NCBI GenBank assembly: GCA_000004695.1
Contig: CM000153.2
Location: 4,960,001 to 5,024,000 of the forward strand
Length of the DNA: 64,000 nucleotides
Direction: 5' to 3'
Origin: Dictyostelium discoideum
Taxonomy: Eukaryota
Shown: in pieces, positions 1,666-44,900 of the stretch
Numbering within the stretch: position 1 is the stretch's first letter
Layout: each line of letters begins with the position of its first letter
Program-made: the position numbers and the translations under genes
The notes under the pieces: generated by a model
What the model was told of the DNA's origin: nothing
Database searches by the model: none
What the model saw: the letters and a program-made list of their open reading frames with translations, nothing else

Positions 1666-1745
<80 letters not shown>

Positions 1746-1794
1746 TAACAATAATAATGATAACAATAATAATGATAACAATAATAATGATAAC

Positions 1795-1856
<62 letters not shown>

Positions 1857-3263: not shown

Positions 3264-3308
3264 CTTATTATAATTTAATTATTGATATTAATCTTTTTAT
3301 TTTTTAAA

Positions 3309-3343
<35 letters not shown>

Positions 3344-4091
3344 CTTTTTTTTTAAGATTCATAGACACATCTTATTGGTTTTAGAGAACTTTGGAAGTAC
3401 AAAGAATCTTTTTCTCGTCCTTTCAGACTGTCTTGCAACATTGAAAGGTTATGATTCTCAAGAGTACCAATTACAACTTGAGCTACAAACCATTTCTGAT
3501 TCAACTACAACTACTACAACAAACACTGTTTCCACTGTTGCCACTGCTTCCACTTCCAAAACTGCCACTTCCAAAAATGTCATTTCAAATATTGAAAACA
3601 ATACTAATAAGAGTCAACCATTGGAATCAAATGATTTAACTCCACCATCATCTAAATCATCTAATTCTTCCCCTTCAACATCTCCAAGCAAAAGAGTTTC
3701 CAAATCTAAAACAAGGGTAACAAAGAAACCAAACCAAGTTATTTCCACTAGTTCTTCTGGTGAAACTGAAAATCTTACTACAACCAGTACTGCTGATACC
3801 ACTGCTACCACTGATACTGCTGATACAACCGATGGCACAAATACAAGAACTAGCAATACATCCAGTGATGATACCACTACAGAATCAACCAAGAAAAGAG
3901 GTAGACCATCTAAAATTCAACCAGACAGTTGCTATGTTTGTAGAAGAACCTTTACTTCATATTGGAGAAAAGGTATCTTCAATGACCAAAATGAAGATCT
4001 TTGCAATCCTTGTGGTTTGAATTATTTGAAAAAAGGAAAAAAAGAACAAATTTCAAAAAATCAAAATAGTATCCACAATATTTTAAACTAA
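3061..4091 (+). CDS. GATA-type zinc-finger transcription factor (paralog of gene at 8885..10116); model join(3061..3213,3357..4091)
   Basis: Exon 1 runs from ATG 3061 to ...RTFVYEN, then GTATTT at 3214. The intron is 143 nt of poly-T ending TTTAAG at 3356. Exon 2 in phase 0 starts IHRHILLVLEN..., which parallels AHRHLKLALEN of the paralog. The C-terminus carries CYVC-x20-CNPC and GLNYLKKGKKEQ...HNILN. Confidence 0.7.
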
Positions 4092-8884: not shown

Positions 8885-9788
8885 TTAGTTCAAAACATTT
8901 TTGATACTATGTTTTTGTCTGGAAAGTCTCTCTTTCTTTTCTTTATTCATGTAGTATAGTCCACATTCATTGCATAGGTCAACTACAACACCATTATCTG
9001 TACCTCTTCTCCAATATGGAGTTTCGGTTACTTTACAGACATAGCAATTTTCTGGAAATATCCTTGGTGGTCTTTCTTTTACCTTGCTTTCTTCTGTGAT
9101 ATCATCAGTGGTTGTAGTAGTACCGATAATATTGGAGTCAGTAGTAGTAATGGGAGTGGTGGTGGTGGTAATGGCAGTGCTAACATTTCCTTTTGTCTTG
9201 GTTTTGGAAATTCCTTTTGTTTTTGATGATGGTGGTTTAGAATCATTTGAATCCAATGGTGGAGTATTATCGACATTGTCTTCATCACTATCATCTTTGT
9301 CTTGATCATCTTTTTGATCATCTTCTTCATCATCACTACTATTCATATCAATTGGTTTGGAACGTACACCACGTGTTTTTGGTTTTGAAACTAAGGCGGA
9401 ATTATTATTTTTGGTAAGTGAATTGGAAGTGGTGGTAGTAGTAGTGGTAGTGTTAGTGGGAGTTGAAGTAGAAGTGGAAGCAGTGGAAAGAGCAACACTG
9501 GTATTAACAGGGTTAACTGATAATGAGGCAATGGCTGTGGTAATGGCGTTTTCATTGATTGTGTTTTGACTGGTATTAACACTATTAACTGGTAAAAGTA
9601 ATTCTGATGTATCGCTAGAATATTGTAATTCCAAACACTCTAGCTCAGCATTCAAACTGGCTTCAAGAGCATCAAATTCTTTCAATGTTACATGGAAGTC
9701 TTTTAGGAGCATTGGTAAATTCAACGCAAGAGTAGCATTTTCCAAAGCCAATTTAAGATGTCTATGAGCCTATATTTTAAATTATTTA

Positions 9789-12004: not shown

Positions 12005-13040
12005 CAAAGATTGATTCTTATTTAAAGTTTTTTTTTTTTTTATTTTTAATCATTAAATAAAAAACATACAAATAAATAAATAAAAAAGTAAAAAAAAAAA
12101 AAAAAATTAAAATGAATTCAATTGAAAATAATAATAATAAAAATAATAATAAAAATAATAATAAGATTTGGTTAATCACAGGAACATCAAGTGGCATTGG
12201 TTTAGAATTAGTAAAGAAGTTGTTAACATATGGTTATAAAGTTTCAGCATTAACTCGTAGACCAGAAGAGATTGAAAAAGAGATTAAAGAAATTCAATTT
12301 GAAAAAGATAATTTATTAATTGTTAAAACTGATATTACAAATAATGAATCAGTAAAGAGTGCAGTAGAAGAGACTATTAAACAGTTTGGTAGAATTGATG
12401 TATTGGTGAATAATGCTGGTTATGGTTTGGTAGGTTCAATCGAAGAGTTATCAGATTCAGACGTTAGAAAGATATATGATGTAAATGTATTTGGTGTTTT
12501 AAATTTATTAAGAAATTCAACACCACATTTTAGAAAACAAAAATCAGGTTTAATAATTAACATATCCTCTCAAATGGGTTGGGATAATATGGAATATTAT
12601 TCAGCATATAGTTCAACTAAACATGCAGTTAATGCAATTACATTCTCTGCACAAAAAGAGTTAAAAGCATTTGGAGTGAATGTAATATTAGTTAGTCCAG
12701 GTGGATTTAGAACTGGTTTCGTTGCTGGTCAACAATCAAACTTTCAAGTACCTTCAAAATTTATTGATGAATATTCAACTCAATCATTCATTGAAATGTT
12801 TAATAAATATTCACCATATTCAAAAGGCGATCCTGAAAAAGCAGCTGAACTCTTAATTAAATTACCAACAATTGAAGAATTACCAAATAATTTATTCATT
12901 GGCTCTGATTCATTATCAGCTGCCAAACAACAATTACAATCACATTTATTAGAAGCTGAAAAATGGTCTGACCTTTCAATTTCAACTGATTACTAAAGAT
13001 ATTAAAAAAAATAAAATAAAATTAAATAAACCTTTTTTGT
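11870..13040 (+). repeat. Segmental duplication unit A (SDR gene plus ~240 bp 5' flank plus ~45 bp 3' flank)
   Basis: It is near-identical to 18346..19490 and inverted relative to 17100..18215. The coding sequence differs from copy C by about 2 nt. Confidence 0.8.
12112..12996 (+). CDS. Short-chain dehydrogenase/reductase (SDR), classical type, copy A
   Basis: The 294-aa ORF has the TGTSSGIGLE cofactor motif, NNAG, a catalytic YSSTKHAV (YxxxK) motif and an upstream Ser. It appears to be a single exon. Confidence 0.85.
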   Translation: MNSIENNNNKNNNKNNNKIWLITGTSSGIGLELVKKLLTYGYKVSALTRRPEEIEKEIKEIQFEKDNLLIVKTDITNNESVKSAVEETIKQFGRIDVLVNNAGYGLVGSIEELSDSDVRKIYDVNVFGVLNLLRNSTPHFRKQKSGLIINISSQMGWDNMEYYSAYSSTKHAVNAITFSAQKELKAFGVNVILVSPGGFRTGFVAGQQSNFQVPSKFIDEYSTQSFIEMFNKYSPYSKGDPEKAAELLIKLPTIEELPNNLFIGSDSLSAAKQQLQSHLLEAEKWSDLSISTDY

Positions 13041-13255: not shown

Positions 13256-13835
13256 TTAAATATTATTAAAAACTGAATTAACATCTATAAAAAAAATTGG
13301 AAAAATATAAACCATGTAATTATTTTCATTTTCAACAACATCATCACCATCATAATAAACCAAACTTGCAACCAATTCATCAATTTCATTTTGAATATTA
13401 GGATCTAAACAATCTTCATTTTCAATTACTTCAAAAATGAAATTGTTAATACTGAGGTTGTTTTTGAATGTGTCACAAGTTGAAAAGTTGCTAGAGTTAT
13501 TTGAAATTTCATTAATGGTATAATTAAAACTATCATTAACATCGGTTCCTTCTTCTCCACTTTTATCTTCTTTTATATTATTATTAATATTTTTATTATT
13601 AATATTATTATTATTGTTAATATCATTGTTGTTTTTGTTATTGTTATTGTTTGGTTTAGTTGGTGGTGCTATTTCATTATTACTATTATCTTGTTGAGTT
13701 TGATTTGTTTTATTTGAACTGTTACTATCATCACTATTACTATTATTATCATTATTTTTAGATGGTAAGTTTTCAGTTTTGATACCTCCATTTACTGTTT
13801 GTGATTCTAACTTATTATTATCATTATTTTTATTA

Positions 13836-13866
<31 letters not shown>

Positions 13867-13881
13867 AATTATTATTATTAA

Positions 13882-13924
<43 letters not shown>

Positions 13925-15793
13925 TTCATTATTATTATTTTGTTTGGAAATTTTATTAACACCACCTTCAATTAATAATTTATTTTTCTTCTCCATTTTC
14001 TTTTTATTTTTCATTTTTAATTTCATTTTATTTTCATTTTCAATTGTTTTTTGAAGGATTAATTGTTGATCTTGTTCTTTCAAAAATTGTTCTAATTTCT
14101 TTTTATCGTCATCCAATTTTGTAGTATTTAAGGGTTGAGATCTTTGTTTTATCTTTTGTAATTTCCTTTTTTGTTTTTCTTTTTCTTTTTCTAATTTTTC
14201 TTCTAATTCAAATTCTTTTAATAAATCATTTTGAGTTTGAATAAATTGATTATACATTTCTTGGCAAAAATCTCTTTCAATCACTTTTTTAGGATCATCT
14301 TTAAAATGTTCGGGTTTAAAAGTAATTTCAATATGATTTGGAATTGAAAAAACTTTTGGTAAAATTTTTAAAACAGGACCACCTGTAGATTTTAAAGAAC
14401 TTAGTTTTTGACTAAATAACCTTTGAATTTCTTCTGCTTTATTCATTTGTATTGGTGGAGAATATTTGGTTGGAAGATATTTTTTTTTTAGTTTTTCTTT
14501 ACTTAATTTACAAACATTTTTAAGGAATTTATTTACAAAGTAACAATTATCATTATTAAGAATTGGTAAATTGATAGATTCATTATCCAATGTTGAAATG
14601 ATTTCTTGTTTAGATGGAAGATAAAATTTGTTTGTGTTTGGTTCTCCAAATTGAAATATTTCTTTTGTTGATAATGATATATTACAATTATAATAATATT
14701 CTCTTAAAAATGAGCAAACGGATAAACCAATTTCATTACCATTTTTATCTCTTGAATTAAGTTTTTTAAATTTATCATATGATACATATTGTTTTTTCAA
14801 ACAAAGATTAAAAATTCTTTTTGAAAATTTAGTTAATCTACAGAATTTTGGAAGTAAGAAATCAATTTGAGGAATTTCTCCAGAACATGCAGAGATTTCT
14901 ATAATTGCATTTTCAAGATTCATTTCAAAATGGCTTGGTAACATTATATTAAGTAAATCTGATACATCCAAATTTACAATTGAATTCCATTTAAACTTTT
15001 CTAATTTCACTAAAGATTCTAAATCCAACATTAAAATTCTTAGAATCATTATCTTTTTACCAATATTTTTAATTTTATTTGAAATACCATCATTCCCAAC
15101 TTGAGATTTCAACCCAGTTGATACTTTAATATATTCACTAATAATTGAATTATAAATTCTCCATTGATCAATTATTTTGAATTTAAAATGAATGAAACCT
15201 TGAAAACGATCATGGGCTTCACGAATATCAATCATTGGTTTATTATTTGGGACATAATCAATATCGGTGACATCATAATATTGTTTAATTAATAATGCTG
15301 CCACTGTTAAAACATCACTTCTTTTAATTTTTGTAATTAAATAATTTGAAATCTTTGTTTTGAAAAAAGTACTTTTATTATAACCAAATTTTAACAGTAC
15401 TTTATAAAAATCTGGACCATTCTCTTCATAGTTGTCCCATCCACCAGCAAAAATTTGAACCATTAATTCCAATGCATTAATGTCATTCAATTTAATTGCT
15501 TCATCAATTAAATTGAAATTGAATAATAATTTTTTTTCATATAGTATTTCATAGAATTCTCTATCGTGACAATTTAAAAGTAATCTATTAATGTCTTTAA
15601 ATGATAAAACAAATTTACTACCTTGTTTCATTAACTCTTTTAATTTAGAAAATTCTTTTTTTTTTATTAAATCTTTCACTTTATTTGCAAGAGAAGTATC
15701 AATTGGAAAGTCATTTTTAAAAATTTGAAAAGTTTTTTTAGTTTTATTTGCATTATGTGGAGGTACAAAAATTAAAGATTTAAAAGATGACAT
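13256..15793 (-). CDS. Hypothetical 845-aa protein with a central Lys/Glu-rich coiled-coil-like segment and a C-terminal Asn-rich/acidic region
   Basis: This is a single long ORF from ATG 15793. The non-repetitive N-terminal 520 aa have coding-like composition. I recognise no domain. Confidence 0.6.
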
Positions 15794-16361
15794 CTTGAAT
15801 TAAAAAAAAAAAAAAAAAAAAAGATTAATAATTAAATTTTTTAAAAGTATAGTTTTTTTATTTTTAATTTTTTTTTATTTACAATTTTACCTTTTATAAT
15901 TATATTATTAGTTTTTTAATTTTTTAATTATTTTTTAATTTTTTATAATTATTTATTTGTTGAATGTATTTTTGTTAATAGATTTTTTAGTTTTTTTTTT
16001 ACTTTGAATAAATTAATATAAAAGTTAAGTATATAAATCAAAGTGATGTATTAAAAATTATAAATATAAATATAAATAATAATAATAATTAAAAAAAAAA
16101 AAAAATTACAATAAAAACAAAATTAGATGATTATAATTTTTTTTTTACCACTTTTCCCACACCAAGTTTTTTTTTTTTTTTTTTTTAATTCACACCCCAA
16201 CACAATTATGATTTCACCTAATAATTGTGTATGGTGATTATTTTTGTATTCAATTAAAAAAAAAAAGAAACTATTTTTGTAAAGTATATTTTTAGCATTT
16301 AAATTAGTTTGTATTTAATTTAAAAAAAAAACTATTATTAAAATTTTACCCCAGTTATATA

Positions 16362-16395
<34 letters not shown>

Positions 16396-17060
16396 ATCAT
16401 TAATCTTTTTTTTTTTAACTGATGATGTTAAAAAATTCAACCACTAAAATTTCCTTTAATTTTGTATATAAAAAATTCTCACAACCTATTGTATCAATAA
16501 TGTTTACCTCATTTTATATTTAAGAGAAACACTTAATTTGCATCTTAAAGGTTTCCACACAAAGTGTAAATTAATTTTTTATAAGTAGTTGAATAGTAAT
16601 AAAATGAAAAATTTAATCCCAATCATCATTATAAGTACCAATGCTATTTCATTTAAAAAAAAAAAAAATTCAAATTGAAAACAAAGTTAAAAATAAATAA
16701 TTACAAAAACAATGAATGACATTAAATTGTAAAAAAAAAATTAATTGACAATAAATATATTTCCAAACCCATTTTTTTAAATCTGGTTTGGAATCGTTTC
16801 AGATTGTGTGGGTGTGTGTATTTTAAATTTCAAAAAAAAAAAAAAAAAAAAAAAATTAAATAATTAAATTATTATTTTTATGTGACCCAAATGAAAATGA
16901 ATAGTATAAATAATCATTTTTTCTTTTTGAAAATAAACTAATAATAAAAATAATAAAAAAAGTAAAGATAAACATCTCTTAAAATAAAATTAATCTACAG
17001 AAGTCCGTTTTGGTTTTTCTGTTGAAATTGAAAGGTTTATTATTTACAAAAAGGTTTATT

Positions 17061-17099
<39 letters not shown>

Positions 17100-17117
<18 letters not shown>

Positions 17118-18120
17118 TTTTAATAATCAGTTGAAATTGAAAGGTCATACCATTTTTCAGCTTCTAATAAATGTGATTGTAATTGTTGTTTGGCAGCTGA
17201 TAATGAATCAGAGCCAATGAATAAATTATTTGGTAATTCTTCAATTGTTGGTAATTTAATTAAGAGTTCAGCTGCTTTTTCAGGATCGCCTTTTGAATAT
17301 GGTGAGTGTTTATTAAACATTTCAATGAATGATTGAGTTGAGTATTCATCAATTAACTTTGAAGGTACTTGAAAGTTTGATTGTTGACCAGCAACGAAAC
17401 CAGTTCTAAATCCACCTGGACTAACTAATATTACATTCACTCCAAATGCTTTTAACTCTTTTTGTGCAGAGAATGTAATTGCATTAACTGCATGTTTAGT
17501 TGAACTATATGCTGAATAATATTCCATATTATCCCAACCCATTTGAGAGGATATGTTAATTATTAAACCTGATTTTTGTTTTCTAAAATGTGGTGTTGAA
17601 TTTCTTAATAAATTTAAAACACCAAATACATTTACATCATATATCTTTCTAACGTCTGAATCTGATAACTCTTCGATTGAACCTACTAAACCATAACCAG
17701 CATTATTTACTAACACATCAATTCTACCAAATTGTTTAATAGTCTCTTCTACTGCACTCTTTACTGATTCATTATTTGTAATATCAGTTTTAACAATTAA
17801 TAAATTATCTTTTTCAAATTGAATTTCTTTAATCTCTTTTTCAATTTCTTCTGGTCTACGAGTTAATGCTGAAACTTTATAACCATATGTTAATAACTTC
17901 TTTACTAATTCTAAACCAATGCCACTTGATGTTCCTGTGATTAACCAAATCTTTTTATTATTATTATTATTATTTCCAATTAAATCCATTTTAATTTATT
18001 TATTTTAATTTACTTTTTTATTTAAAAATTGAATATTTTTTATTTATTTGTTTATTTAATGTTTTTTATTTTAATGATTAAAAAAAAAAAAAAAAACTTT
18101 TAAATAAGAAACAATATATG

Positions 18121-18465: not shown

Positions 18466-18557
18466 GCAAAGATTGATTCCTATTTAAAAGTTTTTTTTTT
18501 ACTCATTAAATAAAAAACATACAAATAATAAATAAATAAATAAATAAATAAATTAAA
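17990..18557. promoter_or_regulatory. Bidirectional promoter region between head-to-head SDR copies B and C, with three copies of the TTCT(T)AGAAGATGACAyAAGAAGATCAaCAATTT motif
   Basis: Motif copies lie at 18181..18214 (reverse complement), 18306..18340 (partial) and 18358..18395. The same motif is at 11884..11925 upstream of copy A. Its core is an AAGAAGAT direct dyad. Confidence 0.35.
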
Positions 18558-19490
18558 ATGAATTCAATTGAAAATAATAATAATAAAAATAATAATAAAA
18601 ATAATAATAAGATTTGGTTAATCACAGGAACATCAAGTGGCATTGGTTTAGAATTAGTAAAGAAGTTGTTAACATATGGTTATAAAGTTTCAGCATTAAC
18701 TCGTAGACCAGAAGAGATTGAAAAAGAGATTAAAGAAATTCAATTTGAAAAAGATAATTTATTAATTGTTAAAACTGATATTACAAATAATGAATCAGTA
18801 AAGAGTGCAGTAGAAGAGACTATTAAACAATTTGGTAGAATTGATGTGTTGGTAAATAATGCTGGTTATGGTTTGGTAGGTTCAATCGAAGAGTTATCAG
18901 ATTCAGACGTTAGAAAGATATATGATGTAAATGTATTTGGTGTTTTAAATTTATTAAGAAATTCAACACCACATTTTAGAAAACAAAAATCAGGTTTAAT
19001 AATTAACATATCCTCTCAAATGGGTTGGGATAATATGGAATATTATTCAGCATATAGTTCAACTAAACATGCAGTTAATGCAATTACATTCTCTGCACAA
19101 AAAGAGTTAAAAGCATTTGGAGTGAATGTAATATTAGTTAGTCCAGGTGGATTTAGAACTGGTTTCGTTGCTGGTCAACAATCAAACTTTCAAGTACCTT
19201 CAAAATTTATTGATGAATATTCAACTCAATCATTCATTGAAATGTTTAATAAATATTCACCATATTCAAAAGGCGATCCTGAAAAAGCAGCTGAACTCTT
19301 AATTAAATTACCAACAATTGAAGAATTACCAAATAATTTATTCATTGGCTCTGATTCATTATCAGCTGCCAAACAACAATTACAATCACATTTATTAGAA
19401 GCTGAAAAATGGTATGACCTTTCAATTTCAACTGATTACTAAAGATATTAGAAAAATAAATAATAAAATTAAATAAACCTTTTTGTAAAT
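18346..19490 (+). repeat. Segmental duplication unit C
   Basis: It is a direct repeat of 11870..13040 and includes the upstream promoter-like motif. The flanks diverge at both ends. Confidence 0.8.
18558..19442 (+). CDS. Short-chain dehydrogenase/reductase, copy C
   Basis: The 294-aa ORF differs from copy A by one residue near the C-terminus (EKWYDLS versus EKWSDLS). Confidence 0.85.
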   Translation: MNSIENNNNKNNNKNNNKIWLITGTSSGIGLELVKKLLTYGYKVSALTRRPEEIEKEIKEIQFEKDNLLIVKTDITNNESVKSAVEETIKQFGRIDVLVNNAGYGLVGSIEELSDSDVRKIYDVNVFGVLNLLRNSTPHFRKQKSGLIINISSQMGWDNMEYYSAYSSTKHAVNAITFSAQKELKAFGVNVILVSPGGFRTGFVAGQQSNFQVPSKFIDEYSTQSFIEMFNKYSPYSKGDPEKAAELLIKLPTIEELPNNLFIGSDSLSAAKQQLQSHLLEAEKWYDLSISTDY

Positions 19491-22215: not shown

Positions 22216-22558
22216 TTAATCAGTATGTTCTTTGAAACAACATCTAATGAGTGGGAGTCTAGATAATTTCTTTCCTAAATCATAGAAATAACTTTTATTT
22301 GGTTTTGGAGCGCTTTCATAACCAAATGAATAATGTTTAGCGATTTCAGCAGCATGTTTCTCACGAAGTTTAAGACGTAGATTATCAACTGATCTAAATG
22401 CTTTTCTGGCTCTTCTCTCTTCAATATATTTTTCAACCTGTGTTTTAATAGCAAAGAAAATTAATGCTAAAAATATTATAATTGCAACAATACCGATATA
22501 CATTTCATTTGGAAATCCTGATGACTTATTTTCACTATAACTAATTGTTGATTCATCT

Positions 22559-22595
<37 letters not shown>

Positions 22596-25142
22596 TTAAT
22601 TTTCAAAAGTAATAAATAAATAATAGTAGATATAGAGAGAGAGAGATATCATAGGTATTTATAACTTACATTTAAATTGGAAAATTTGAGCAATAAAGTA
22701 TTGACCATCAACAGAGATACTGATATTGAATTTAGTATTGGAGTAGTTATATTTTAGCATTTCATCATAGTTGGTTACATTACAGGTTAAACTAGAATAA
22801 GTGTGAATGTTGATTTCAGGTTGTGTACATGGTTTACCATCGATTAGAATTTCAAGATTTGCATCACCAAATGATGTACCATATATAGTGATTAAAGCAG
22901 TTTGATCAATATCTGATGTATTTGTAATGGTTGGAGGAGCAAATGTATAGTTTGAATAACCAGTAATTGACGATTGGTAGACTTTTTCAGTGGCAGAATT
23001 TGAACTAGAGATTATTAATGGTTTAGAGCCAGATGTATAGTATGGTGAAAGCGATTTAAGATTTGGTAAAATTACACATTCAATGGTTGTTACATTGATT
23101 GAAGAGATATTACATGGTACTTTACCAATTGTAATGGTTGTAGTATCTTTGGTATAGTTAAAAAAGTAATGACCATTAATAGTAACCATTCCACCACCAC
23201 ATGGTACTGCAGGATTATTATTTTCAATAACAGGTTTCAAAGTGAATGGACCAGCCATATTACTAATTTGATCGCCAAGTTGGAATAGATAGCTTGCAGT
23301 GTTTTTATTTCCTGCTGGATATTGAAACGTAAGAAGATTATGACTACTTTCTACTACTGTACCATTTGCTCTACTGCCATCGAGATAAACAACAGTTATA
23401 ATTGAATTGCTAACGGATTCACCGAGATTATTGCCATTAATTTGAATAGTACCATCTTTTTCTTGATCACTTGATGCGAGGTATGGAGGATTGTAACTAA
23501 CGACGAACGAACCAACTGGTAAAAGATTATAGTAAACATTCATCGTGTGGCTTGAACCGAAACCAGATTTCAAAACACAGGTGAAGGATAAACCATCGCC
23601 ATCTTTCAATGGATCACAAATAGGACCGCCAGGCTCACTCTTAACTGTTAGTGGAACATCTCTACCATCAGAATCTACAGTTCTCATAAAGATACCACTG
23701 ATTATCAAATCACCACCAATTGTATTTGATTTGAAGCTTTGGCCAGCAGTAATGGTTGGAGTGATCTTGAAATTATATCTTGGAGATGTAAATGATTTAC
23801 TACCACCATCACCAACAATAAGATTCATAAAACCAGGTTGTGTATTATTTGGTAGGAATATGAAAATGGTATTATTACTTTCAATAAAAAATCCAGGTTC
23901 TTCTAAAGTTGGAGTAGGCTTTTTCAAAATATTAGTTTTAATATTCGCACCAGTAATTATTGTCATACTAATTACACCAGAGAAATATACACCAGATACA
24001 TTGAAAATCTGTGAAGTACCCCTTTGTGAAACACCTTGAATTAATGGAAGATCATATGATATTTTAATTGTATTTGTTGTGTATTTACCAATCTATATAA
24101 AAAACATCATTTTAAAAAAAGAATTAGTAATTTGATTGTTATGGTTTATATATTATGATTTACTTACAGTTACATTAAGAGGAACATCATAACCAGAACC
24201 ACCATATTCTGAACGACTTGGTATGGAACATATTACACTTTTTGAAGTACCAGCGAAACAACTAATAGGTTTACCACCAAAATGACCACTTATTGTAGTG
24301 CTTGGATTCACACTTAGATGGTCTCCTGTGAAAGTTAAATTACCACCATTATCATTAAGTACTCCTTCCATTACAGTGATTATTGGTAAAAATGTGTAAA
24401 GATAACTTTTATAAAATACATCACATATTGTTACATCAATGGTCCAGTTACCTTGATACTGTGATTCAGGTAATGAAAATACTATGGTGGAGTGAGTAGA
24501 ATCTAGGTTTCCAGTTGGGTTGAGGTTTTCAACGGGATCATTTGAATTAATTTTAATTTGGGTGTTGTAAAGGTTACTTCCTTGAATGGTAATATTTCCT
24601 TGGTCATCGATTGTTGGTTTATTTGGTATATCTCCAGTTTGATATGAAGCATTATAAATTACTCTTGAGCCTGAATTTATAATTAAATCTCCACAGCCTG
24701 GTTGTATTCTCATGGTGAACTGGTCTAAATTGATATTGTATGGTGTTACAATTTTGTTTGCTATATTCAAAGGTTTTATTCTACCATAAACACTTGTACA
24801 AGGATAGTTATATGTGAAATTAACGGATCCTCCTATTGTGGGGACAGATGGAAGGGATGGGATTTCTGGTAAAAAATAAATATCATAGGTATAATCACAA
24901 AGTCTATCCTTGTATGGAAAATTAACAACATCAAAATAAAACTTTCCATCAGTGTCCTTTTCCAGTGTTGCATCAGTTCTATTATTTGGATTTAAAAGAA
25001 TGGAAATAACTTGATCATCACATCGGATTTTGGTTATTTTTGTCTCCGGCCTTTCATTGTTTATTAGATAACAATCCGATTTAACAAATAAAAACCTATA
25101 AATAAAAATAAATAAAAAAATAGTTAAATGTTTTAATTTCAT
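22216..25142 (-). CDS. Tgr (tiger) family IPT/TIG-repeat type-I membrane glycoprotein with ~75-aa cytoplasmic tail (tgrB-like); model join(25142..24168,24092..22670,22556..22216), ~912 aa
   Basis: It starts with signal peptide MKLKHLTIFLFIFIYRFLFVKSDC. Introns run from GTAAGT at 24167 to ATAG at 24093 (75 nt) and from GTAAGT at 22669 to AAAG at 22557 (113 nt), both phase-consistent. IPT/TIG-like repeats such as ITIYGTSFGD...IDGKPC are present. The last exon encodes a TM helix IGIVAIIIFLALIFFAI followed by a tail rich in R/K/E. Confidence 0.75.
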
Positions 25143-25170
25143 TCTTTACTAATTACTAATTGCGGGTCAA

Positions 25171-25227
<57 letters not shown>

Positions 25228-25656
25228 AAAAAGAAAAAAAAAAAAAAGGTTGTGTGTTTTGTGTGTGAAAATAATAATTAAAAACAAATAATAAAAAAAT
25301 AAAAAAATATCTGTGTTAAATTATTGAAATACCCCATTCAAAAAAACAACAACACACACACTAACTGATTTTTAGGGTTGAACGTTTTATTTGTTTTTTT
25401 TTTTATTTTTATTTTTATTATAATATTTATTTGATATATTTCTATTTTTAATTCATTATTTTTATTTTTATTTTTATTTTCAATTTTTTTTTTTTTTCAA
25501 ATATTGGATATTTTTTATTTTTTATTATTATTATTATTTTTTTATTTTTATTTTATTTAATTGTTAATATATATTTTTTTAATTATTTATTTTCTTTATT
25601 TATTTATTTATTTTTTTATTTTTTTTTTTTTTTTATTTTTTTTTTGAACACATGAA
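25143..25656. promoter_or_regulatory. Shared intergenic promoter region of the divergent tgrB-like/tgrC-like pair (~0.5 kb)
   Basis: It lies between two start codons on opposite strands. It is AT-homopolymer rich and carries the C-rich island gttgtgtgttttgtgtgtg at 25250..25270 and acaacacacacactaac at 25350. Confidence 0.5.
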
Positions 25657-28428
25657 ATGATTCATAAAATGTATTTTTTTTTAATACTTTTATTTTCATT
25701 ATTTATTATAGTTTATTCGGCACCAAATCGTAAGTAAATTTAAATTTTTCCAAACATATTATCATTTTGCTTTTTGTTATTTCAAATTAATTAACATGTT
25801 AATTTTATATTAGGGGTAACCAGAAATGAAACTTCTATAGTATATACCTATTCCCTTGATAGTGATTATTATACTCGTTTTGTTATGTATCTAAATGCTA
25901 CTACCTTAAGAACTGATATAGCTCCAAATTATTTTGATTGCAGCCAAATTGTCAACTCAGAGAGATATTGTGTATTCCATTTTGCTGATTCATTTTCAAG
26001 ATTATGGGGAGCCGTTTACAGTAGAGTCTGTACAAGAACAGTATCTGACCCAACGGAGGATTGTCAAAGTACTTGGATCACTGATAATGCTTTTCCAGAA
26101 CCCCTCAATGTAAAATTTAGTGGATATCCAAGTACGTCTGGAGGTGATGTTGTTTTTACTGGCCTTTTTTTAAGATTGGCTGGAGGTCCTAATACTCTTG
26201 CAAATTCTTTTACTAACCCTTCAAAAACCTTTCTTATTAAAGTTCATGGTAATTTCTCTGATCCAAATTTTAATTGTAATAATTTCACTGCAACATTTCC
26301 ACCAAGTTCTGGGTATATCAAGGTATATTTTGATGACACTGGAAAGAGTTCTCTTCAATTACGATATGCTTCACCAACTGTATCAAGTTTTATTCTTGAT
26401 GAATCAAAAAAATTAGTAACAATAAATGGTGATAACTATTTCACAAAGAATTCCTTAGTTCAAGTTTTTTTTGATGGTATTATTCAAAACAATATTAATA
26501 TTACAGTGAATCATTCACAAATTCAAGTGAATAACTTTATTAGAGTTGATCCTGGTCCAATGTCTGTCAATATTACTATAAACGCTGTTTCAATTGATAA
26601 TAATTATACTTATTGTTTCCCAGCAGTGATATCATCAATCTCATCGGTTTCAAATCATTTAGGTGGTGTTGTAACTATTAAAGGTTCAAAGCTATCTTCA
26701 ACTTCAATTATTCCAACAATTAAAATTGGTGATAAACAATGTACATTTATTAAATCAACAACAACTGAATTAGAATGTCAATTAGAACCAAATGAAACTG
26801 GTGGTAAACATTTACCAGTTGATGTTAATTTCGGTGGTTGTAATTCAACAAGTTCTGGTAGTGATGCTGTAACCTTTACATATAGTATTCCAACGCTATC
26901 AAGTGGAACATTATCAAATGGTATAGTTACATTAATTGGTACAAATCTTGGTACAATTAATGATTCATTCATTCAATTAAACTCCAATGGAGCTATTGAC
27001 AATGTAAAGAATGATCAATTTAATATATCATCCGATGAAACTACTGCTACATTTAAATTACCACTATTAAAATGTAAATCATTTTATATTAATTTCACTC
27101 GTGTTGATATTTCAGCAAATAATAAACCTTCAATTTCAGCACCATTATTAATATATGTAATCAATAAACCTACAGTATCAAATGGATCAATAAATATTGA
27201 ATTATATTATATTGATTGTCCAATCAGTCCATCATCAACACCAAGTATTACTGTGGGTAATTCATCATCAGCTACTCAATGCTCAATACCATCATTAAAA
27301 AATTTATCAGAATACTATCAAACAACATGTTCAATACCATATGGTACTGGTACAAATAAACAATTCAAATTCAAATATAATTCAGAGGAAAGTAATAGTG
27401 AATTCTCATATGAACCACCAAAAGTTGAATCACGTTCATTCTCCAAAGGTCTATTTAATATTACAATTAATGGTAATAATTTTGGTAACTCAACATCATT
27501 GATTAAAGTTTATTTCAATGGTAGTGATATTTCATCAGAAATTCAATCATTAAATGATAATCAATTTACATTTAAAAGATTAAATTCATATGAAAATGGC
27601 CCAATTAATATTACTGTAGATGGCAATAGTAATATGGAGCCATCGTTTTATTTAACATTACCACCTGTTATTTATTCTATAATAAATAAAGAAAATAAAA
27701 CAATTGGTTGTGGTGGTCTAATCACAATTTCTGGTAAGAATTTATTAACAAGTGATGATAAATTCAAAGTTAGAGTATTAGCAAATAATGAAAATACTAC
27801 TGTAATAGTTCCCGATGAAAAAACATTAATTGTAAGAGCTAATAATAAAGATAGTCCACTCTTTGTTTCAACATTAATTGGAGATGATTTGGGTCCAAAT
27901 ACAACATTAACATATTTTGAACCAAGAATCACAGTTATTCCAACAGTTAAAAATAAAAAAGATGGTATTTCAATAAGAGTGGGTGGTGTTAGTTTATCAG
28001 GTATTATAAATGCAAGTTTAGGAATTTCATCAGAAAATGTTTCTCTTTCATGTGATTTACAATGTAGTTTATCTCCAAATGAAACATTTTATTTAAGTAA
28101 TCCAATACTAAGTTCAAATGAAAAAGATATAACAAATAGTACTGATTGTTTATCATGTCATTCAATGAATTCAATTGTTGTTGATGAAACATCAGGAGTA
28201 TTATATCTCCAATTAGGCCCAACATCATATCATTATGATGTTAAAATCGAAGAAATTCAATCATCATTAAATCCATCATCATCAAATGGTGGTGAAAGAA
28301 AATCATCAAAACTATCAGGTGGTGCAATTGCTGGTATTACAATTGGTTGTGTTGCTGGTGCTGGTGCTTTAGTTGGTTCTGTCTTTTATTTTAAATTAAT
28401 CACTCGTGTTAAAAAAGCATTCAATTAA
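25657..28428 (+). CDS. Tgr family IPT/TIG-repeat type-I membrane glycoprotein with very short (~11 aa) cytoplasmic tail (tgrC-like); model join(25657..25729,25814..28428), ~895 aa
   Basis: Exon 1 encodes signal peptide M(IHKM)[19 protein letters not shown], then GTAAGT at 25730. The intron is 84 nt and ends TATTAG at 25813, in phase 1 with exon 2. Several TIG domains are present ([31 protein letters not shown]). The C-terminal TM is [22 protein letters not shown], followed by [11 protein letters not shown]. Confidence 0.75.
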
Positions 28429-30192: not shown

Positions 30193-30906
30193 ATGAAATT
30201 ATTATTTATTTTATTAATTTTAACAATAACTATTAAAAATTGTTTATCAATTAATATAAACGATAATAATAATCAAATTATAAATTTAAAAATAAACGAT
30301 ACATCCTATTCAATGGTACCATATCAAGATGAAGCATGTGCTAATTTGGAAGAAAGTATTGGTTTTACATTCCCAAGTTCACCATCAAAAGTAAAAGAGG
30401 TAATGACAGTTTTTGGTCAATTTAATAATAATTTCTGTGTAGTGATTTCAAATGATGGTTCAGGTACATTTGAGATTGAATGGTATATCGATCAAGATTG
30501 TTCAAACATCGCACCAAAATCAAAACCATATTCAACTGAACAATATCAAATTGGGAAATGTTTATACTCAAGTACAATGGGTTCATACTATACTCTAACT
30601 GAGACCGATCAAGTCCAATTCGATGAAAACACATTAATCATTCAAGATACCATCAAACAAGATAATAGTAAATGTAATTCAGTTAGAGAGGGTTATTATA
30701 GTTTTGTTAAAAACTCTACTCAATTCCAAGAAATGAGAGGCTGGGTGACCTTTACTGATACTTATTATTGTACTGACAATTTACAACCATTTTGTTATTC
30801 TTGTTCCGATGAGGGTTGTAATCAACTTTATTTAGAACAAACTTGTGTTCAACAAGATAACTTTAATATTAAATGTTTTGGTTCATCATCATCTTCTTCT
30901 TTCTAA
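30193..30906 (+). CDS. Secreted Cys-rich protein (237 aa), uncharacterised
   Basis: It has a signal peptide MKLLFILLILTITIKNCLS, 18 Cys and a Ser tail. It is a single exon. Confidence 0.6.
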   Translation: MKLLFILLILTITIKNCLSININDNNNQIINLKINDTSYSMVPYQDEACANLEESIGFTFPSSPSKVKEVMTVFGQFNNNFCVVISNDGSGTFEIEWYIDQDCSNIAPKSKPYSTEQYQIGKCLYSSTMGSYYTLTETDQVQFDENTLIIQDTIKQDNSKCNSVREGYYSFVKNSTQFQEMRGWVTFTDTYYCTDNLQPFCYSCSDEGCNQLYLEQTCVQQDNFNIKCFGSSSSSSF

Positions 30907-31122: not shown

Positions 31123-32544
31123 GTTTATTAAAGGTGAAGTAATTGTTGGAGTTGAGGTTTGAGAATTTATATTTTGTTGTGAGATTTGATTTTGTGAATT
31201 TGTTGAATTAAAGGAGGTTGATGGTAGAATTGTTGGGCTGACCTCATAAGAGGTGGTAGCATTGGTGGCGGTATTTGATGATTTGGAACATTTACGGTTC
31301 TTAATTCATTGCAAAACATTTGAATATCTTTCTCTAGTACAGATTGGATTCAGTGAATCCAAATAAAATAATTCCAATACACAATCATTTATAAAACAAG
31401 TTAATAGTTTCATTTTAGACAACACATTGGTTTGAATTTAATGAACTATATAGAAATCTTATTTTGTATATTACAACCAACAATAATCTTTATTTTTTTA
31501 CTTTTTATTTTTTATTTTTTTATTTATTTATTTTTATTTTTATTTTTATTTTTATTTTTAATTTTAATTATAATTTACATAATAAATCTCTTTTTATCTT
31601 GTCAAATGCTAATGTTGATTGTAGTGAAGTGGAATGACACTATTATTAACACAACCTCTATTATTATGAATATTACTACTACTACTACTACTACTCCTAC
31701 TACTACTACTAATATCCTGATGTTATTGAGGTAATTTTAGATATTTATTGAAATATTTTGATTGTTGATAATTCTTTTTCATGTTTCCTTGGTAGTTCTT
31801 TGATTTATGGGTCAAAGGAACTGATATCATTCTCTTGTTAATTTGGTTTTTATAAATTCTCTTTAATTGGTATTGGTGGTTGTCTGGTGTTATTTTTGTT
31901 GTTGTAGTGTTTTTTTGGTGAAGAGGAAGGTGTAGAAGATTTATCATTATTAGGATTTGGTTATCAATCTTAAGGTTGATTATTTTTTAAATTAGAGTAA
32001 TTTGTTGTTATTGTTATTGTATTACTTTATTGATTAATATTATAAAGTGAAGTGGTAATCCGTAATTATATATTAGTAATAGTTTTGTAATAAGTCATGG
32101 TGTGATGATAGGGATCTTTGGGTGTGTGAGGTGGTGGTGAAATCCTTTGTTAATGGTACTGGTGATGAAATTGGGTGAAAAAAGATCAATTGGATGGTTG
32201 ATTATTGAATTGATTTAGAGTTGGTTGATGATTTGGTTGGGTTTGACATAGTAAACTATATATTGGTTTGATATTGGTTGGATTCAAATTGTTTAAAAAA
32301 AAAAAAAAAAAAATAATAAAAATAAAAAAAAAGTTTTGTTGGCCTAAAGTTGGAGATTTAAAAATGAAAAGAAAAATTTTATTATCATATGATAATGAAT
32401 TAATTATTTTATAATAATTTTGTGTAACTATTTGGTAAAAAATGTTTATTTATTTATTTTTTTATTTTTTTATTATTTTTTTTTTTCCTTCTTATTTATT
32501 TATTTTATTTTTTTTTTTTTATAAAAAAAAAGATTATTTAACTT

Positions 32545-34563: not shown

Positions 34564-35252
34564 CTATTTCCTAACACCTAATACACCCATTTTTACAAAT
34601 TAACACAAAAAAAATGTATATAATATATTTATATATTCATATTTAAAAAAATTGCTTCCAATAAAAAATTACCAAACCAATAAAAGCTCATTCTCTAAAA
34701 AAACACCACCAGATTTCAAAAAAAAAAAAAAAAAAAAAAAAAAAAACAAAACAGTTTGGAATTATTTGAGGGTTAATTATTTTTATTATAGTTGTTCATT
34801 GTTTTATTTTCATTTATGTCTAGATTTTCAATATTATTATTTTTATTATTAAAAAAAAAAAATAAAAAAAAATAAAAAAAATGAGTTATAACTTGGTTTT
34901 TTTTTTTTTCAAAATACAAAAATCAATCATCATAACAATTATGGGGTTAGATTAAAAAAAATTATTTAATGTGGGTGTGAATTTTTATAATAATATAACA
35001 AACCTACACAAAAACTTGGTGGTGAAAGTGGTAAAAATAAAATAATCATAATTGTGTTTTTATATTCTTTTGATTTAATTTATTTTTATTTTTTTTTATT
35101 TTTTTTTTTAATGTTGAGTAGGTTACATCACTTTTTCAAACATCATTCACACCCAAATATATATATATATATATATAGTATAAAGGAAACAAATTAATTC
35201 AGAATGCCACAAAAAAAAAAAAATAAAAAAAAAAAAAAATAAAAAAAAAAAA

Positions 35253-36052: not shown

Positions 36053-36460
<408 letters not shown>

Positions 36461-41936: not shown

Positions 41937-44900
41937 TAATTTATTTTTTATATTATTTAAAAGTTTTTTATTATTATTCTTTTTAACAAAATGGTAGGCC
42001 AAAGATATTGAAATCACAGCTACAAATGCTACAGAACCAATAATGATACCAGCTAACTGGCCAGAAGAAAGACCAGATTTTGAATAAGTACAAATATTAT
42101 TTGAATTTGAGTTTTTACTATGATCAATAAGTAGAGAAAAATCTTTTTTTTTTTTTTTTTTTTAAAAATATATAAATAAAAAATAAATTAGTTATTATTT
42201 AGAATAATTAAAAATAATTTTAAAATTTTTAATTATTATTTACCCGGATCAATAATAACATATTCTTTATATTGAGGTATTGAAATTGCTATAAATAATT
42301 GATCTGAATGTGGTGTTGTGTCTATTGTTTTTAATGAATTAAATTCTGATTTTTCTAATATTGTATTTGAAATTGATTTTGGTAAACCATCAATTAATGC
42401 TCTTTTTATGAATCTACCATATAATGAATGATCACCTACTTTAATTTTTAAGTAATTTGAATTATCAATAGAATTTGTTTCACCAAATTCATTTCCAGAA
42501 CAAATATCATTAGTTTTTGAAGATAAAAGAGATGCTGACATAATTAATTCAAGTTGATTTAATTGATTTTTAAAATTATAATTTGAAAATGAAATTGTAT
42601 ATTTTATAGTTGATGGATTCATAATGAGTGATTGATTTGCAAATGAAATATTTGTTTCTTTTGTAAACCATTGTAAAGTTGTATTTATATAGGTTGTTGT
42701 TGTTGAAATTCCATCAATAGTAGTTGGTGGAACAATGATTGATGTTTGGTATAGGTTAGTTTCATTATTAATTTTTGTAAGGTTCCACTTTTCAAAATAA
42801 TATTCATTTACAACCTTTGAATTAAAATCAATTTCTCTAATTCCAATCAATGAAACAATTGATTTAAATGAATAATCTTGAATATTTGATGTTGATGTTG
42901 AATTTGGTGTTATTATAATTTCAGTGGTTGGGTCATTTGGATTTGGTTTTGGTTGTGGAATTATGATTACTTGTGAACTACAATCATTACCAATCCAAGG
43001 TGAATAGCAAACACATCCAACATTTGTTAAACAATAACCTTGATTTTTACCACCACAAATTGGTTCACCAAAACATAATTGTGGTGGATTTGTTGGTAAT
43101 GGAGTTGTTGGTGTGGGTGTTGGAGGTAAATCATATGATATATTGAAAATTTTTGGTACAACTGTAAATTTGTTTGAAATGGAAATTAGATTTCCACTCA
43201 TATCAAATTCCATAATATAAATTATAAATGGTTTTGTAGTTGCATTTACCATTACCGAAAAAGCACTAGAGTATACAGTAATTGGGGGTTGTTCATATTT
43301 ATTTAATGTTTCAGTGTAATTGATATAAACAACAAATGAAGAATACATATTTCCATTAGGATCAATAAAATCTTTATAAAAATTACTACCCAATACCCAT
43401 AATAAACCACCTTTTTCATTAATTGTACTTGTATCTGTAATAGTCATAGTATCAGGCATAAAATCAATAATTAAACCATTATATCTATTTGTCCAACCAT
43501 TTGATCCCAGTGTGTGAGAAGAGTAACCACTATAGTATCCTAAATTATTTATAAATCCATAAACACTAAAAATAAATTCACTTCTAAAACCAAAACCATA
43601 TGGTACATTAATACTACATGTATATCTACAAGTATTTATAGAAGATTGAGAAAATAATTTTGAATAACATTTAATAGAATCAAAAAATAATGTAGATATG
43701 TAAATAATTGGAGTTTGATCAATTCTAATACCAGAATCCAAATCTGTTACAGTGAAATTAAAATTGAAAACACCATTTGGAAATTCATACATTTGGAAAT
43801 CTGTTAAAAATGGAACTGTATTACCACCGGTATTTGAACAAAAGTTTGGGACAATTCTATTATTGAAATCCATAAAATTAATGAACGGATTTTGAATTGG
43901 TTCTACAACATTACCATTTTCTGAAAATATAGCTCTATTCATTTGAGTATCATATAATTCAACATATGTGATTGAATAATTTTGTGGAACACATGATAAA
44001 GGGATTGGTATCCATAATTGATAAAAACCAGATTTATCATCACCACTTGATAATTTAACATTAATTTCATTTCGAAGTAACTGTCTCTTATAATTTTGTC
44101 CTGTTGGTTCTAAATAGAAAATATAAGTTGAACTATCTAATTCACCTGAAATTTTAATAGTACCATTTTTAAAACCATTGATTGGATCATAAATATTAAT
44201 TTTCAAACCAACTTCAAGACTAGTTGAAATTACACTTAAATTATTTATTACAGGACCATATCCATCATAATTTTTACTAATACAAGTTAATTGAACTGAT
44301 TTTGATAGGTATGAACTAAAAAGTGTTGCTAAATTTCCATCAACGATATCTTTTATATATGACCATCCACCAAATACTAATTTCCAAGGAATAACTCCAC
44401 TTTGAGTATTTGATGGTATTTCAAATTCAACTTGAAATAATTTAATTGTTGAATTCCATTTTGAATAATAAACTTTACCAATACCATCATTCTCTATTTG
44501 ATTTAATGAAACCCTATCTAATAATTGAAAACCAATAACTCTTTCCTTTTCAATTGGTTTTGTAAAATTAAAATAAATTATATTTGAAACTGTTTTATTA
44601 GTAATATCAACAACTTGATGTAAATAACTTAAATCACTTATTGAAAATATATCAACATCTAAAATTAATAAATAATAATTATAATTTGTTAATATAAATT
44701 TAAAATAAAATGTAAAAAATTCTTTTTTTTTTTTTTTTTTTTTTTTTTTCAAAAAAATTTACCTTGTAATTTTGGTGGGTATGGTATTCTTTTTAGTGAT
44801 TTTGGACTTGTAATTTCACCAATTTTAAAATCTTGAGTATATCCATAAATATCTTCATATGTTATTATCTCTGGATAATGTAAAAATGTATCAATTACTA

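Follow-up and report, generated by a model that had tools for sequence, protein, structure and literature searches.

The closest known counterpart of the locus analysed here is the tgrB1-tgrC1 allorecognition (greenbeard) pair of Dictyostelium discoideum, a B-type gene whose product has a long tail and a C-type gene whose product has a short one, divergently transcribed about 0.5 kb apart. Each product combines a signal peptide, IPT/TIG-Ig repeats and one transmembrane (TM) helix. This pair sits in the tgrBC cluster together with neighbouring duplicates. The tgr family as a whole shows birth-and-death dynamics, and the tgrBEJ/tgrCDK clades (tgrB2, tgrC2-C5 and tgrJ/tgrK) comprise other recent duplicates of one ancestral pair that are restricted to the discoideum clade and often lie head to head (Holland et al. 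2025, PMC12745789). The tgrE1/tgrD1 pair resembles tgrB1-tgrC1 in layout and in the build of its products, and is likewise a recent duplicate arranged head to head. It differs in standing alone outside the tgrBC cluster, as a single-copy pair that is intact in 5/5 isolates, whereas the cluster contains many fragments and pseudogenes. It is termed an 'isolated pair without nearby duplicates' in the literature, and a tblastn search of the window (the whole 64-kb stretch of DNA that was analysed) returned no tgr homologue beyond tgrE1 and tgrD1.

The sequence-only reading of this DNA had proposed two head-to-head genes of about 900 aa with start codons about 515 bp apart, and the spliced models confirm it. 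The minus-strand gene runs in three exons from 25142 to 22216 and encodes 912 aa, the plus-strand gene runs in two exons from 25657 to 28428 and encodes 895 aa, and 514 nt separate the ATGs at 25142 (-) and 25657 (+). The features of the two genes are as follows.

24168..25142, minus strand: tgrE1 exon 1 (codons 1-325, splice model), signal peptide and fastest-evolving N-terminal ectodomain
24093..24167, minus strand: tgrE1 intron 1, 75 nt, GTAAGT...TATAG
22670..24092, minus strand: tgrE1 exon 2, IPT/TIG repeats (splice model and Pfam)
22557..22669, minus strand: tgrE1 intron 2, 113 nt, GTAAGT...AG
22216..22556, minus strand: tgrE1 exon 3, juxtamembrane stretch, TM helix (aa 818-836), 76-aa cytoplasmic tail and stop codon
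25657..25729, plus strand: tgrD1 exon 1, signal peptide, with the annotated ATG at 25657 and a conserved in-frame ATG at 25669
25730..25813, plus strand: tgrD1 intron, 84 nt
25814..28428, plus strand: tgrD1 exon 2, tandem Ig-like/IPT ectodomain, TM helix (aa 860-884), 11-aa tail and stop codon

Comparison with the known Tgr proteins, which had been suggested as a check, gave an exact match of the minus-strand translation to TgrE1 of D. discoideum AX4 (Q54L75, TGRE1_DICDI, XP_637528.1, DDB_G0286851) and of the plus-strand translation to TgrD1 of the same strain (Q9U8Q1, TGRD1_DICDI, DDB_G0286825), with TgrB1 and TgrC1 as the nearest paralogues. These letter-for-letter matches validate both gene models, and the gene identifiers and CDS lengths (2739 nt for tgrE1 and 2688 nt for tgrD1) are those listed by Polo et al. 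2025 (Table S3). The locus is therefore the annotated, already known tgrE1 (minus) / tgrD1 (plus) pair. Of the two options left by the earlier suggestion of a 'tgrB1/tgrC1 locus or paralogous pair', the paralogous pair holds and the tgrB1/tgrC1 locus itself (DDB_G0280689/DDB_G0280531) is excluded. One detail of the annotation may need adjusting: the first ATG of tgrD1 is GTG in two isolates and the in-frame ATG at 25669 is kept in 5/5, so that the conserved start is probably M5 of the annotated protein.

Both products show the signal peptide, repeats and single TM helix of the Tgr (Tiger) family as well as identity with named members, which bears out the domain structure read from the sequence. 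Pfam assigns five TIG stretches to the tgrE1 product (E=1.6e-23) and three TIG stretches plus Ig_TgrO1 to that of tgrD1 (E=1.7e-20 and 2.1e-16), both N-termini are hydrophobic, and each protein has one C-terminal TM helix. The predicted asymmetry of the cytoplasmic tails, about 75 aa on the minus strand and about 11 aa on the plus strand, was recovered as 76 aa in TgrE1 and 11 aa in TgrD1. The presence of 21 N-x-S/T sequons in TgrE1 and 27 in TgrD1 is consistent with glycoproteins. The AlphaFold model of TgrD1 (model pLDDT 71) is all-beta with pLDDT mostly 70-90 over residues 20-725. That of TgrE1 shows an all-beta ectodomain with a helical TM segment and tail, and was left out of the fold comparison because its mean pLDDT of 52.9 is too poor. 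Foldseek returned only generic multi-Ig matches for TgrD1 (plexin, contactin and MET ectodomains), and a sequence search of the PDB gave no match to any chain for either protein. Like the metazoan multi-Ig/IPT receptors (plexin, MET, contactin and gp130), TgrD1 has an ectodomain built as a string of Ig-like beta-sandwich domains, but this likeness is one of fold only (8-16% identity, with TM-scores around 0.1 as the chains are flexible), and TgrE1 and TgrD1 have neither a sema nor a kinase domain.

The tgrE1/tgrD1 pair is the closest paralogous pair of tgrB1/tgrC1. TgrE1 is 66-68% identical to TgrB1 alleles and TgrD1 57-60% identical to TgrC1/LagC alleles; TgrE1 and TgrD1 share a local similarity of 24-30%, comparable to that between B1 and C1. 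The TgrE1 tail aligns with that of TgrB1 over its whole length at about 80% identity, including the common segments AFRS.DNLRLKLR and, at the C-terminus, KKLSRLPLIR.CFKEHTD, and the TgrD1 tail is similar to that of TgrC1. The motif around the activating L846F site of TgrB1, for which allele numbering differs, is conserved in TgrE1. Identity to TgrB1/TgrC1 in the membrane-distal 250-300 residues of TgrE1 and TgrD1 is 30-55%. In a neighbour-joining tree, the B sequences, E1 and a chromosome 2 paralogue formed a clade with 97.5% bootstrap, in agreement with Holland et al. 2025 (PMC12745789), with E1 as its own clade (100%) and D. citrinum outside. The tgrB1/tgrC1-type architecture that the sequence-only reading had recognised is matched in its divergent layout, its long and short tails and its intergenic length (514 bp, against 485 bp in one tgrB/tgrC pair of identical layout and 600 bp in another). 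The closest D. citrinum pair is also head to head, with about 360 bp between the genes. Next after it comes a GATA-factor gene similar to the one at 8885-9751 of the window. The D. citrinum pair is thus a candidate positional orthologue, but GATA genes form a family, the flank on the D1 side is unmatched and the tree places D. citrinum outside B+E.

Conservation was followed in AX4 and four further discoideum-clade isolates, a set of diverged tropical isolates and cryptic species rather than a population sample. The pair and its head-to-head orientation are retained in 4/4 of the further isolates with ORFs intact under the AX4 exon structure, and no frame or splice site is broken in any of the five lineages, which are dS 0.05-0.30 apart. 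Both genes are under purifying selection, with dN/dS of 0.11-0.28 in tgrE1 and 0.18-0.36 in tgrD1. The elevated dN/dS across isolates that had been expected from a tgrB1/tgrC1-like pair was not borne out: among 60-codon windows of either gene in the five isolates none exceeded 1, the top window averaged over all isolate pairs reaching 0.67 in E1 and 0.54 in D1 and the top single-pair value 0.90. In contrast, the tgrB/tgrC positive control from two of the same isolates gave values of 0.5-0.75 (0.75 for tgrB exon 1, with windows up to 1.69, and 0.69 for tgrC, with a window up to 2.33). Constraint is unevenly distributed along the proteins. In both TgrE1 and TgrD1, evolution is 3-10 times faster in the N-terminal third than towards the C-terminus, and the dN of tgrE1 is at its maximum at codons 91-180. 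Within this region, codons 121-180 are homologous to a hypervariable TgrB window and show a dN/dS of 0.9 in one isolate pair (ACTFIW vs ACTFIZ). Lineage-specific diversification of the N-terminal region may therefore occur to some extent. At the other end of the protein, exon 3 of tgrE1, encoding the juxtamembrane stretch, TM helix and tail, has a dN/dS of 0.02-0.11, and the cytoplasmic tail is very strongly constrained.

Unlike the hypervariable tgrB1/tgrC1, tgrE1 and tgrD1 contain no hypervariable segments, contrary to what had been anticipated for this locus. Two other ordinary D. discoideum sequences are near-identical to AX4: a wild-isolate TgrD1 (ACN54216) differs at 4/895 residues and a further E1 exon-1 allele at 2/325. 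TgrD1 sequences, including those of two tropical isolates, all fall into one 90% cluster, compared with at least six clusters for TgrC1 alleles. Under the name lagD1, tgrD1 is said to have been called a 'nearly invariant homolog' by Benabentos and colleagues in 2009, and its deletion reportedly does not lead to segregation. These patterns bear on the idea of a second, cryptic recognition locus, in which the N-terminal regions of D1 and E1 would co-diversify and the pair would act as a weaker tgrB1/tgrC1 in self/non-self or cryptic-species discrimination. Such a role would fit the architecture shared with the allorecognition pair and the near paralogy to it, the concentration of change in the N-terminal ~300 aa of both partners with the E1 peak at the TgrB window where dN/dS exceeds 1, and the divergence of the cryptic-species proteins from those of AX4 (6-8% in E1 and 11-16% in D1). 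It is nevertheless unlikely, given the low gene-wide dN/dS, the near-invariance of alleles among ordinary strains, the reported outcome of the lagD1 deletion, and an E1/D1 divergence about equal to that of the flanking coding DNA when all of the latter is tiled. An apparent excess of E1/D1 divergence over a glyoxalase gene vanished with this tiling. Diversity outliers, moreover, are dominated by genes of the tgrBC cluster (Polo et al. 2025).

The genes share the intergenic region listed below, in which conserved sequence other than plain AT is found in the ~250 bp adjoining tgrE1, the tgrD1-side half being AT-rich and of low complexity. Intergenic divergence from AX4 is 3.7-12.5% and lower than that of introns.

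25143..25656, no strand: shared intergenic region, 514 bp, 11.7% G+C
25174..25247, no strand: poly(A) tract of ~74 nt with two G interruptions, directly upstream of the tgrE1 leader, of varying length among isolates
25248..25267, plus strand: GT-rich, G-box-like element GGTTGTGTGTTTTGTGTGTG, conserved in 5/5 isolates
25347..25361, plus strand: CA-rich element CAACAACACACACAC, inverted partner of the GT-rich element, its 5' 12 nt identical in 5/5 isolates

GT-rich elements are associated with GBF in the post-aggregative promoters of Dictyostelium, and the GT-rich and CA-rich elements, whose two KGKGKGKG matches are offset by 93 nt, are candidate GBF sites. Local alignment of the E1-D1 and tgrB-tgrC intergenic regions gave high scores that stem from AT-rich low complexity, and no homology could be demonstrated apart from this. 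An alignment of the non-AT core was equalled by 4-5 of 500 shuffles and once more fell on an A-rich stretch, and a visual resemblance (CCCC..TTCAAA..ACAC..ATTTTTAG) is without statistical support. A scan for sigma-70 promoters and terminators, inapplicable to a eukaryote, gave no excess.

Published data place the expression of this pair much below that of tgrB1/tgrC1. At 9 h, tgrD1 was recorded at 126.8 and tgrE1 at 19.0 CPM, corresponding to 20 and 3 reads, and apart from B1, C1 and M1 most tgr genes show low or undetectable expression in AX4 (Polo et al. 2025, Fig. S2 legend for the latter). In a 21-strain transcriptome study, tgrE1 is an 'up' milestone gene of the tight-aggregate-to-tip transition, later than the induction of tgrB1/tgrC1, whereas tgrD1 is no milestone gene. 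Regulon 6 contains both tgrB1 and tgrC1, while tgrE1 and tgrD1 belong to no regulon. The TgrD1 protein has been detected late and in low amounts, and in a life-cycle proteome it appeared in 2/10 samples with about one tenth of the intensity of TgrB1, with TgrE1 undetected. On these very small counts, expression of the pair is low and does not look tightly co-regulated. One might conclude that tgrE1 and tgrD1 are a largely redundant duplicate heading for loss, weakly transcribed and contributing little, as many tgr paralogues and pseudogenes appear to be in a family with birth-and-death dynamics. This is distinctly improbable, however, as frames and splice sites have stayed intact in five lineages with dN/dS well below 1, the E1 tail and the promoter blocks are conserved, tgrE1 is induced at a specific stage, and mutations in tgrD1 and tgrE1 are reported to cause mound-stage arrest (Sucgang 2011, PMC3188802), loose-aggregate or mound arrest having been reported for mutants of tgrB1 and tgrC1 as well.

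The same data raise the question of whether the two genes are neighbours rather than partners, having kept an ancestral orientation while being regulated separately and engaging other Tgr proteins (D1 with TgrB1, or E1 with a C/D/K-type protein). The unequal read counts and protein detection, the different classification of the two genes in the 21-strain study and the position of all conserved promoter elements in the part of the intergenic region next to tgrE1 would agree with this. Yet pairing and orientation are kept in every isolate and in all B/C-type pairs examined, and the two partners are similarly diverged from B1/C1 in their N-terminal regions, as expected under co-adaptation; with expression evidence that consists of very small counts, separate partners seem very improbable.

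The reading preferred here is that tgrE1/tgrD1 is likely a monomorphic cell-contact pair of post-aggregative development, with D1 as ligand and E1 as receptor. A whole tgrB-type/tgrC-type gene pair was duplicated within the discoideum clade, the copy now lying alone, away from the tgrBC cluster. By homology with TgrC1, the short-tailed TgrD1 would most likely serve as the ligand on one cell and, by homology with TgrB1, TgrE1 as the receptor on the adjoining cell. Binding of D1 to E1 would then be followed by signalling through the E1 tail, which so closely resembles that of TgrB1. The two proteins probably recognise each other and do not cross-react with TgrB1/TgrC1, because the membrane-distal regions have diverged so far from those of the paralogues. 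Because purifying selection acts on tgrE1 and tgrD1 alike and the two are near-invariant among ordinary D. discoideum strains, their role would be that of a monomorphic contact and signalling module rather than a kin-discrimination barcode.

Perhaps, in a more speculative version that must be considered rather unlikely, tgrE1/tgrD1 is a 'public' greenbeard module, a receptor and ligand that are monomorphic within the species, feed into the TgrB1 pathway via the conserved tail and carry distal domains that differ from one cryptic species to another. In that role the pair would provide a compatibility check at the level of species or lineage, or a later developmental checkpoint at tip formation; if true, either would run parallel to the strain-level check of tgrB1/tgrC1. 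The locus has already been annotated and discussed in several papers, and the present result is mainly a correct re-identification, which shows that Tgr-type loci can be recognised from raw sequence. Its modest value is that tgrE1/tgrD1 can serve as a natural control for tgrB1/tgrC1: the architecture is shared and the receptor tails are nearly identical, but selection on tgrE1/tgrD1 is purifying and not diversifying. Such a control would help to separate the parts of TgrB1 and TgrC1 that confer specificity from those that signal, and to ask why hypervariability arose in one duplicate and not in the other.

The divergent gene pair is the already known tgrE1/tgrD1 pair of D. discoideum. Gene models, built by listing ORFs and examining splice signals in a window whose G+C content (about 20%) is as expected for Dictyostelium, are as follows:

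25142-24168, 24092-22670 and 22556-22216, minus strand: tgrE1 exons (introns of 75 and 113 nt; 912 aa)
25657-25729 and 25814-28428, plus strand: tgrD1 exons (intron of 84 nt; 895 aa)

The spliced minus-strand product matches the AX4 Tiger protein E1 (Q54L75, XP_637528.1) letter for letter, as does the plus-strand product Tiger protein D1 (Q9U8Q1, XP_637529.1; formerly lagC2/lagD1), and the CDS lengths listed for DDB_G0286851 (2739 nt) and DDB_G0286825 (2688 nt) by Polo et al. 2025 agree with the tgrE1 and tgrD1 models respectively. The locus is therefore not tgrB1/tgrC1 itself (DDB_G0280689, DDB_G0280531), so that of the two options left by the sequence-only reading, that locus or a paralogous pair, the latter holds. 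The start codons are separated by 514 nt. TgrE1 contains five IPT/TIG stretches by Pfam and TgrD1 three plus a TgrO1-type Ig domain, and both begin with a hydrophobic segment and have one TM helix towards the C-terminus, followed by cytoplasmic tails of 76 aa (TgrE1) and 11 aa (TgrD1). The earlier description of two head-to-head genes of about 900 aa with signal peptide, IPT/TIG domains, one TM helix and a long and a short tail is therefore confirmed in every element.

TgrE1 shares 66-68% identity with TgrB1 alleles and TgrD1 57-60% with TgrC1/LagC alleles. TgrE1 and TgrD1 have 24-30% similarity to each other in local stretches only, much like TgrB1 and TgrC1. The N-terminal 250-300 residues of both proteins are only 30-55% identical to their TgrB1 and TgrC1 counterparts, whereas the remainder of TgrE1 is 67-89% identical to TgrB1. 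The TgrE1 tail can be aligned with that of TgrB1 residue for residue, with the common ending KKLSRLPLIR.CFKEHTD, and the short TgrD1 tail is like those of C-type proteins. A neighbour-joining tree unites TgrB of the discoideum clade with TgrE1 and a paralogue on chromosome 2 (97.5% bootstrap), leaving proteins of D. citrinum, D. dimigraforme and D. firmibasis outside. The tree is in line with Holland et al. 2025 (PMC12745789), where tgrE/J adjoin tgrB, tgrD/K adjoin tgrC and one-to-one orthologues are confined to the discoideum clade. No further tgr homologue was found within the 64-kb window, and Polo et al. 2025 use tgrD1/tgrE1 to illustrate isolated pairs. The pair is thus a relocated, conserved duplicate of the tgrB/tgrC module. 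Its neighbours in the window are the following:

967-1950 (plus), 3282-4091 (plus) and 8885-9751 (minus): three GATA-type C-terminal zinc-finger genes within 9 kb
12058-13030, 17086-18058 and 18513-19477: three copies of an adh_short (short-chain dehydrogenase) gene, about 970 nt each and 94-99% identical
30193-30906, plus strand: CfaA/B/C-family (counting-factor-associated) secreted protein, 237 aa (PF11912, E=2.6e-30)
36053-36442, minus strand: glyoxalase/VOC gene, 129 aa
39193-39266, plus strand: tRNA-Phe (GAA) gene, with a conserved syntenic counterpart in D. citrinum and D. dimigraforme

The window is colinear with D. citrinum and D. dimigraforme from about 52.9 kb downwards as far as the glyoxalase gene, where synteny breaks off abruptly. 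The 10 kb beyond this gene in either species (L007 and L008, the syntenic regions, from about position 10390 on) contain no tgr gene and nothing that matches the remainder of the window, so that the tgrD1/tgrE1 block and all sequence left of it, at least 36 kb, lack a counterpart there. The closest D. citrinum pair (L009) is also head to head, and a GATA-factor gene (L009 15823-17258) resembling window 8885-9751 lies 2.9 kb downstream of its tgrB/E-like member; a similar GATA neighbour is insufficient to call this pair the positional orthologue. The GATA gene at 8885-9751 was called by Pfam, the other two by the finger motif in translation and tblastx matches to it. The adh_short copies, two direct and one inverted, flank an 845-aa ORF (13256-15793, minus) without Pfam match, and their number and order vary among isolates. 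The CfaA/B/C-family gene, 1.8 kb downstream of tgrD1, shows 7-11% nucleotide divergence between AX4 and other isolates and is hardly alignable in ACTFIZ. The best non-dictyostelid relatives of the glyoxalase/VOC protein are Acinetobacter VOC proteins (72-74% identity over the full length; D. purpureum orthologue 73%), and the dictyostelid gene looks to be of bacterial origin.

Orthologous loci from four long-read assemblies were compared with AX4: ACTFIW and ACTFIR, labelled D. discoideum and probably corresponding to tropical isolates OT3A and CR116C, and ACTFIY and ACTFIZ, cryptic-species isolates labelled D. cf. discoideum. The divergent arrangement is kept in all four, and AX4 exon boundaries yield intact frames throughout (TgrE1 908-913 aa, TgrD1 895-898 aa). 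The deposited models of tgrE1 in ACTFIR (985 aa; L003 10001-13553) and tgrD1 in ACTFIZ (1021 aa; L002 5136-9493), each with a long unrelated C-terminal extension, are therefore probably mis-spliced predictions, as AX4 splice sites give 912 and 896 aa. In ACTFIY, a DDE_Tnp_4 transposase gene (L004 14016-14778) lies about 1.1 kb downstream of tgrE1, and TgrE1 is four residues shorter at its end (908 aa). The annotated tgrD1 ATG (25657) is GTG in two isolates (L001, L003) and the in-frame ATG at 25669 is kept in all five including AX4; the true N-terminus is probably MYFFLILL... An out-of-frame mini-ORF, ATGAAATGA, lies just upstream of the tgrD1 start, at 25652.

Hypervariable segments and elevated dN/dS, as anticipated from the sequence alone, were not borne out. 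Among ordinary strains, the single distinct wild-isolate TgrD1 departs from AX4 in 4 of 895 residues and a further TgrE1 exon-1 variant in 2 of 325, unlike TgrC1, whose alleles split into six or more distinct clusters at 90% identity. LagD1 is reportedly a nearly invariant homologue whose deletion caused no segregation. Nei-Gojobori dN/dS over all ten isolate pairs was 0.11-0.28 for tgrE1 and 0.18-0.36 for tgrD1, and the highest pair-averaged 60-codon windows reached 0.67 (TgrE1 codons 121-180) and 0.54 (TgrD1 codons 151-210); the TM helix and tail region of TgrE1 (0.02-0.11) is among the most constrained parts. As a positive control, the same script was applied to a tgrB/tgrC pair present in two of these isolates (L005, L006), for which orthology cannot be taken for granted within the tgrBC cluster. 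It gave 0.75 for tgrB exon 1 (windows of 1.2-1.7 at codons 61-180) and 0.69 for tgrC (windows up to 2.33) at dS similar to that of tgrE1/tgrD1, versus 0.24 and 0.30 for tgrE1 and tgrD1 in the same isolate pair. The top window there (0.90, TgrE1 codons 121-180) is homologous to the TgrB hypervariable stretch. Tiling of 28 kb around the locus showed flanking coding DNA to be as diverged as the pair (for the two tropical isolates, flanks about 94-97% and tgrE1/tgrD1 91-98% identical), and thus no locus-specific excess of divergence. The pair may have an allorecognition role at the cryptic-species level, but allorecognition fails both tests run, polymorphism and dN/dS.

The 514-bp intergenic region has 11.7% G+C, and apart from purely AT stretches its conserved sequence is confined to the roughly 250 bp next to the tgrE1 ATG, where a conserved leader is followed by a poly(A) tract (about 74 nt), a GT-rich element and a CA-rich element:

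25248-25267: GT-rich element, kept in 5/5 isolates
25347-25361: CA-rich element, inverted counterpart of the GT-rich element, kept in 5/5 isolates

The two are spaced by 93 nt (offset between two octamer matches). In post-aggregative Dictyostelium promoters, GBF binds G-box/CA-rich elements, which these resemble, making them candidate GBF sites. KGKGKGKG octamers occur 18 times in the window (4.4 expected from shuffles), clustered at about ten sites (e.g. 16156-16198, 16805-16818, 32119-32128, 34970-34979, 43110-43119); these sites could be G-box-type elements in the promoters of neighbouring genes. The tgrB-tgrC intergenic regions are organised likewise, their complex elements lying towards tgrB and their AT-rich sequence towards tgrC; no sequence homology to the tgrE1-tgrD1 region could be demonstrated.

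On this anatomy, co-regulation from the shared promoter is plausible. Direct RNA sequencing of strain QS33 at 9 h gave 475 CPM for tgrC1, 349 for tgrB1, 127 for tgrD1 (20 reads) and 19 for tgrE1 (3 reads), and AX4 RNA-seq of most tgr genes except tgrB1, tgrC1 and tgrM1 was low or undetectable (Polo et al. 2025, supplement). In a 21-strain transcriptome study, regulon 6 holds tgrB1, tgrC1 and rapgapB, and both tgrE1 and tgrD1 lie outside all regulons; the 'up' milestone genes for the transition from tight aggregate to tip include tgrE1, and the sole mention of tgrD1 is in a reference list labelled 'cAMP'. The life-cycle proteome has TgrD1 in 2 of 10 samples at about one tenth of TgrB1 intensity (fruiting-body cluster); TgrE1 was not detected.

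Neither protein has a sequence match among solved structures. The TgrD1 model (pLDDT 71) shows beta-sandwich domains in series and is best matched by plexin, contactin, titin, gp130 and MET ectodomains; that of TgrE1 was too uncertain for use. Mutations in tgrB1, tgrC1, tgrD1 and tgrE1 all lead to mound-stage arrest (Sucgang et al. 2011, PMC3188802). The best-supported reading is a monomorphic contact-signalling pair, in which TgrD1 would be the ligand and TgrE1 the receptor, acting after aggregation. Signalling would then use the TgrB1-like tail of TgrE1, and the pair's own binding specificity would reside in the diverged N-terminal domains.
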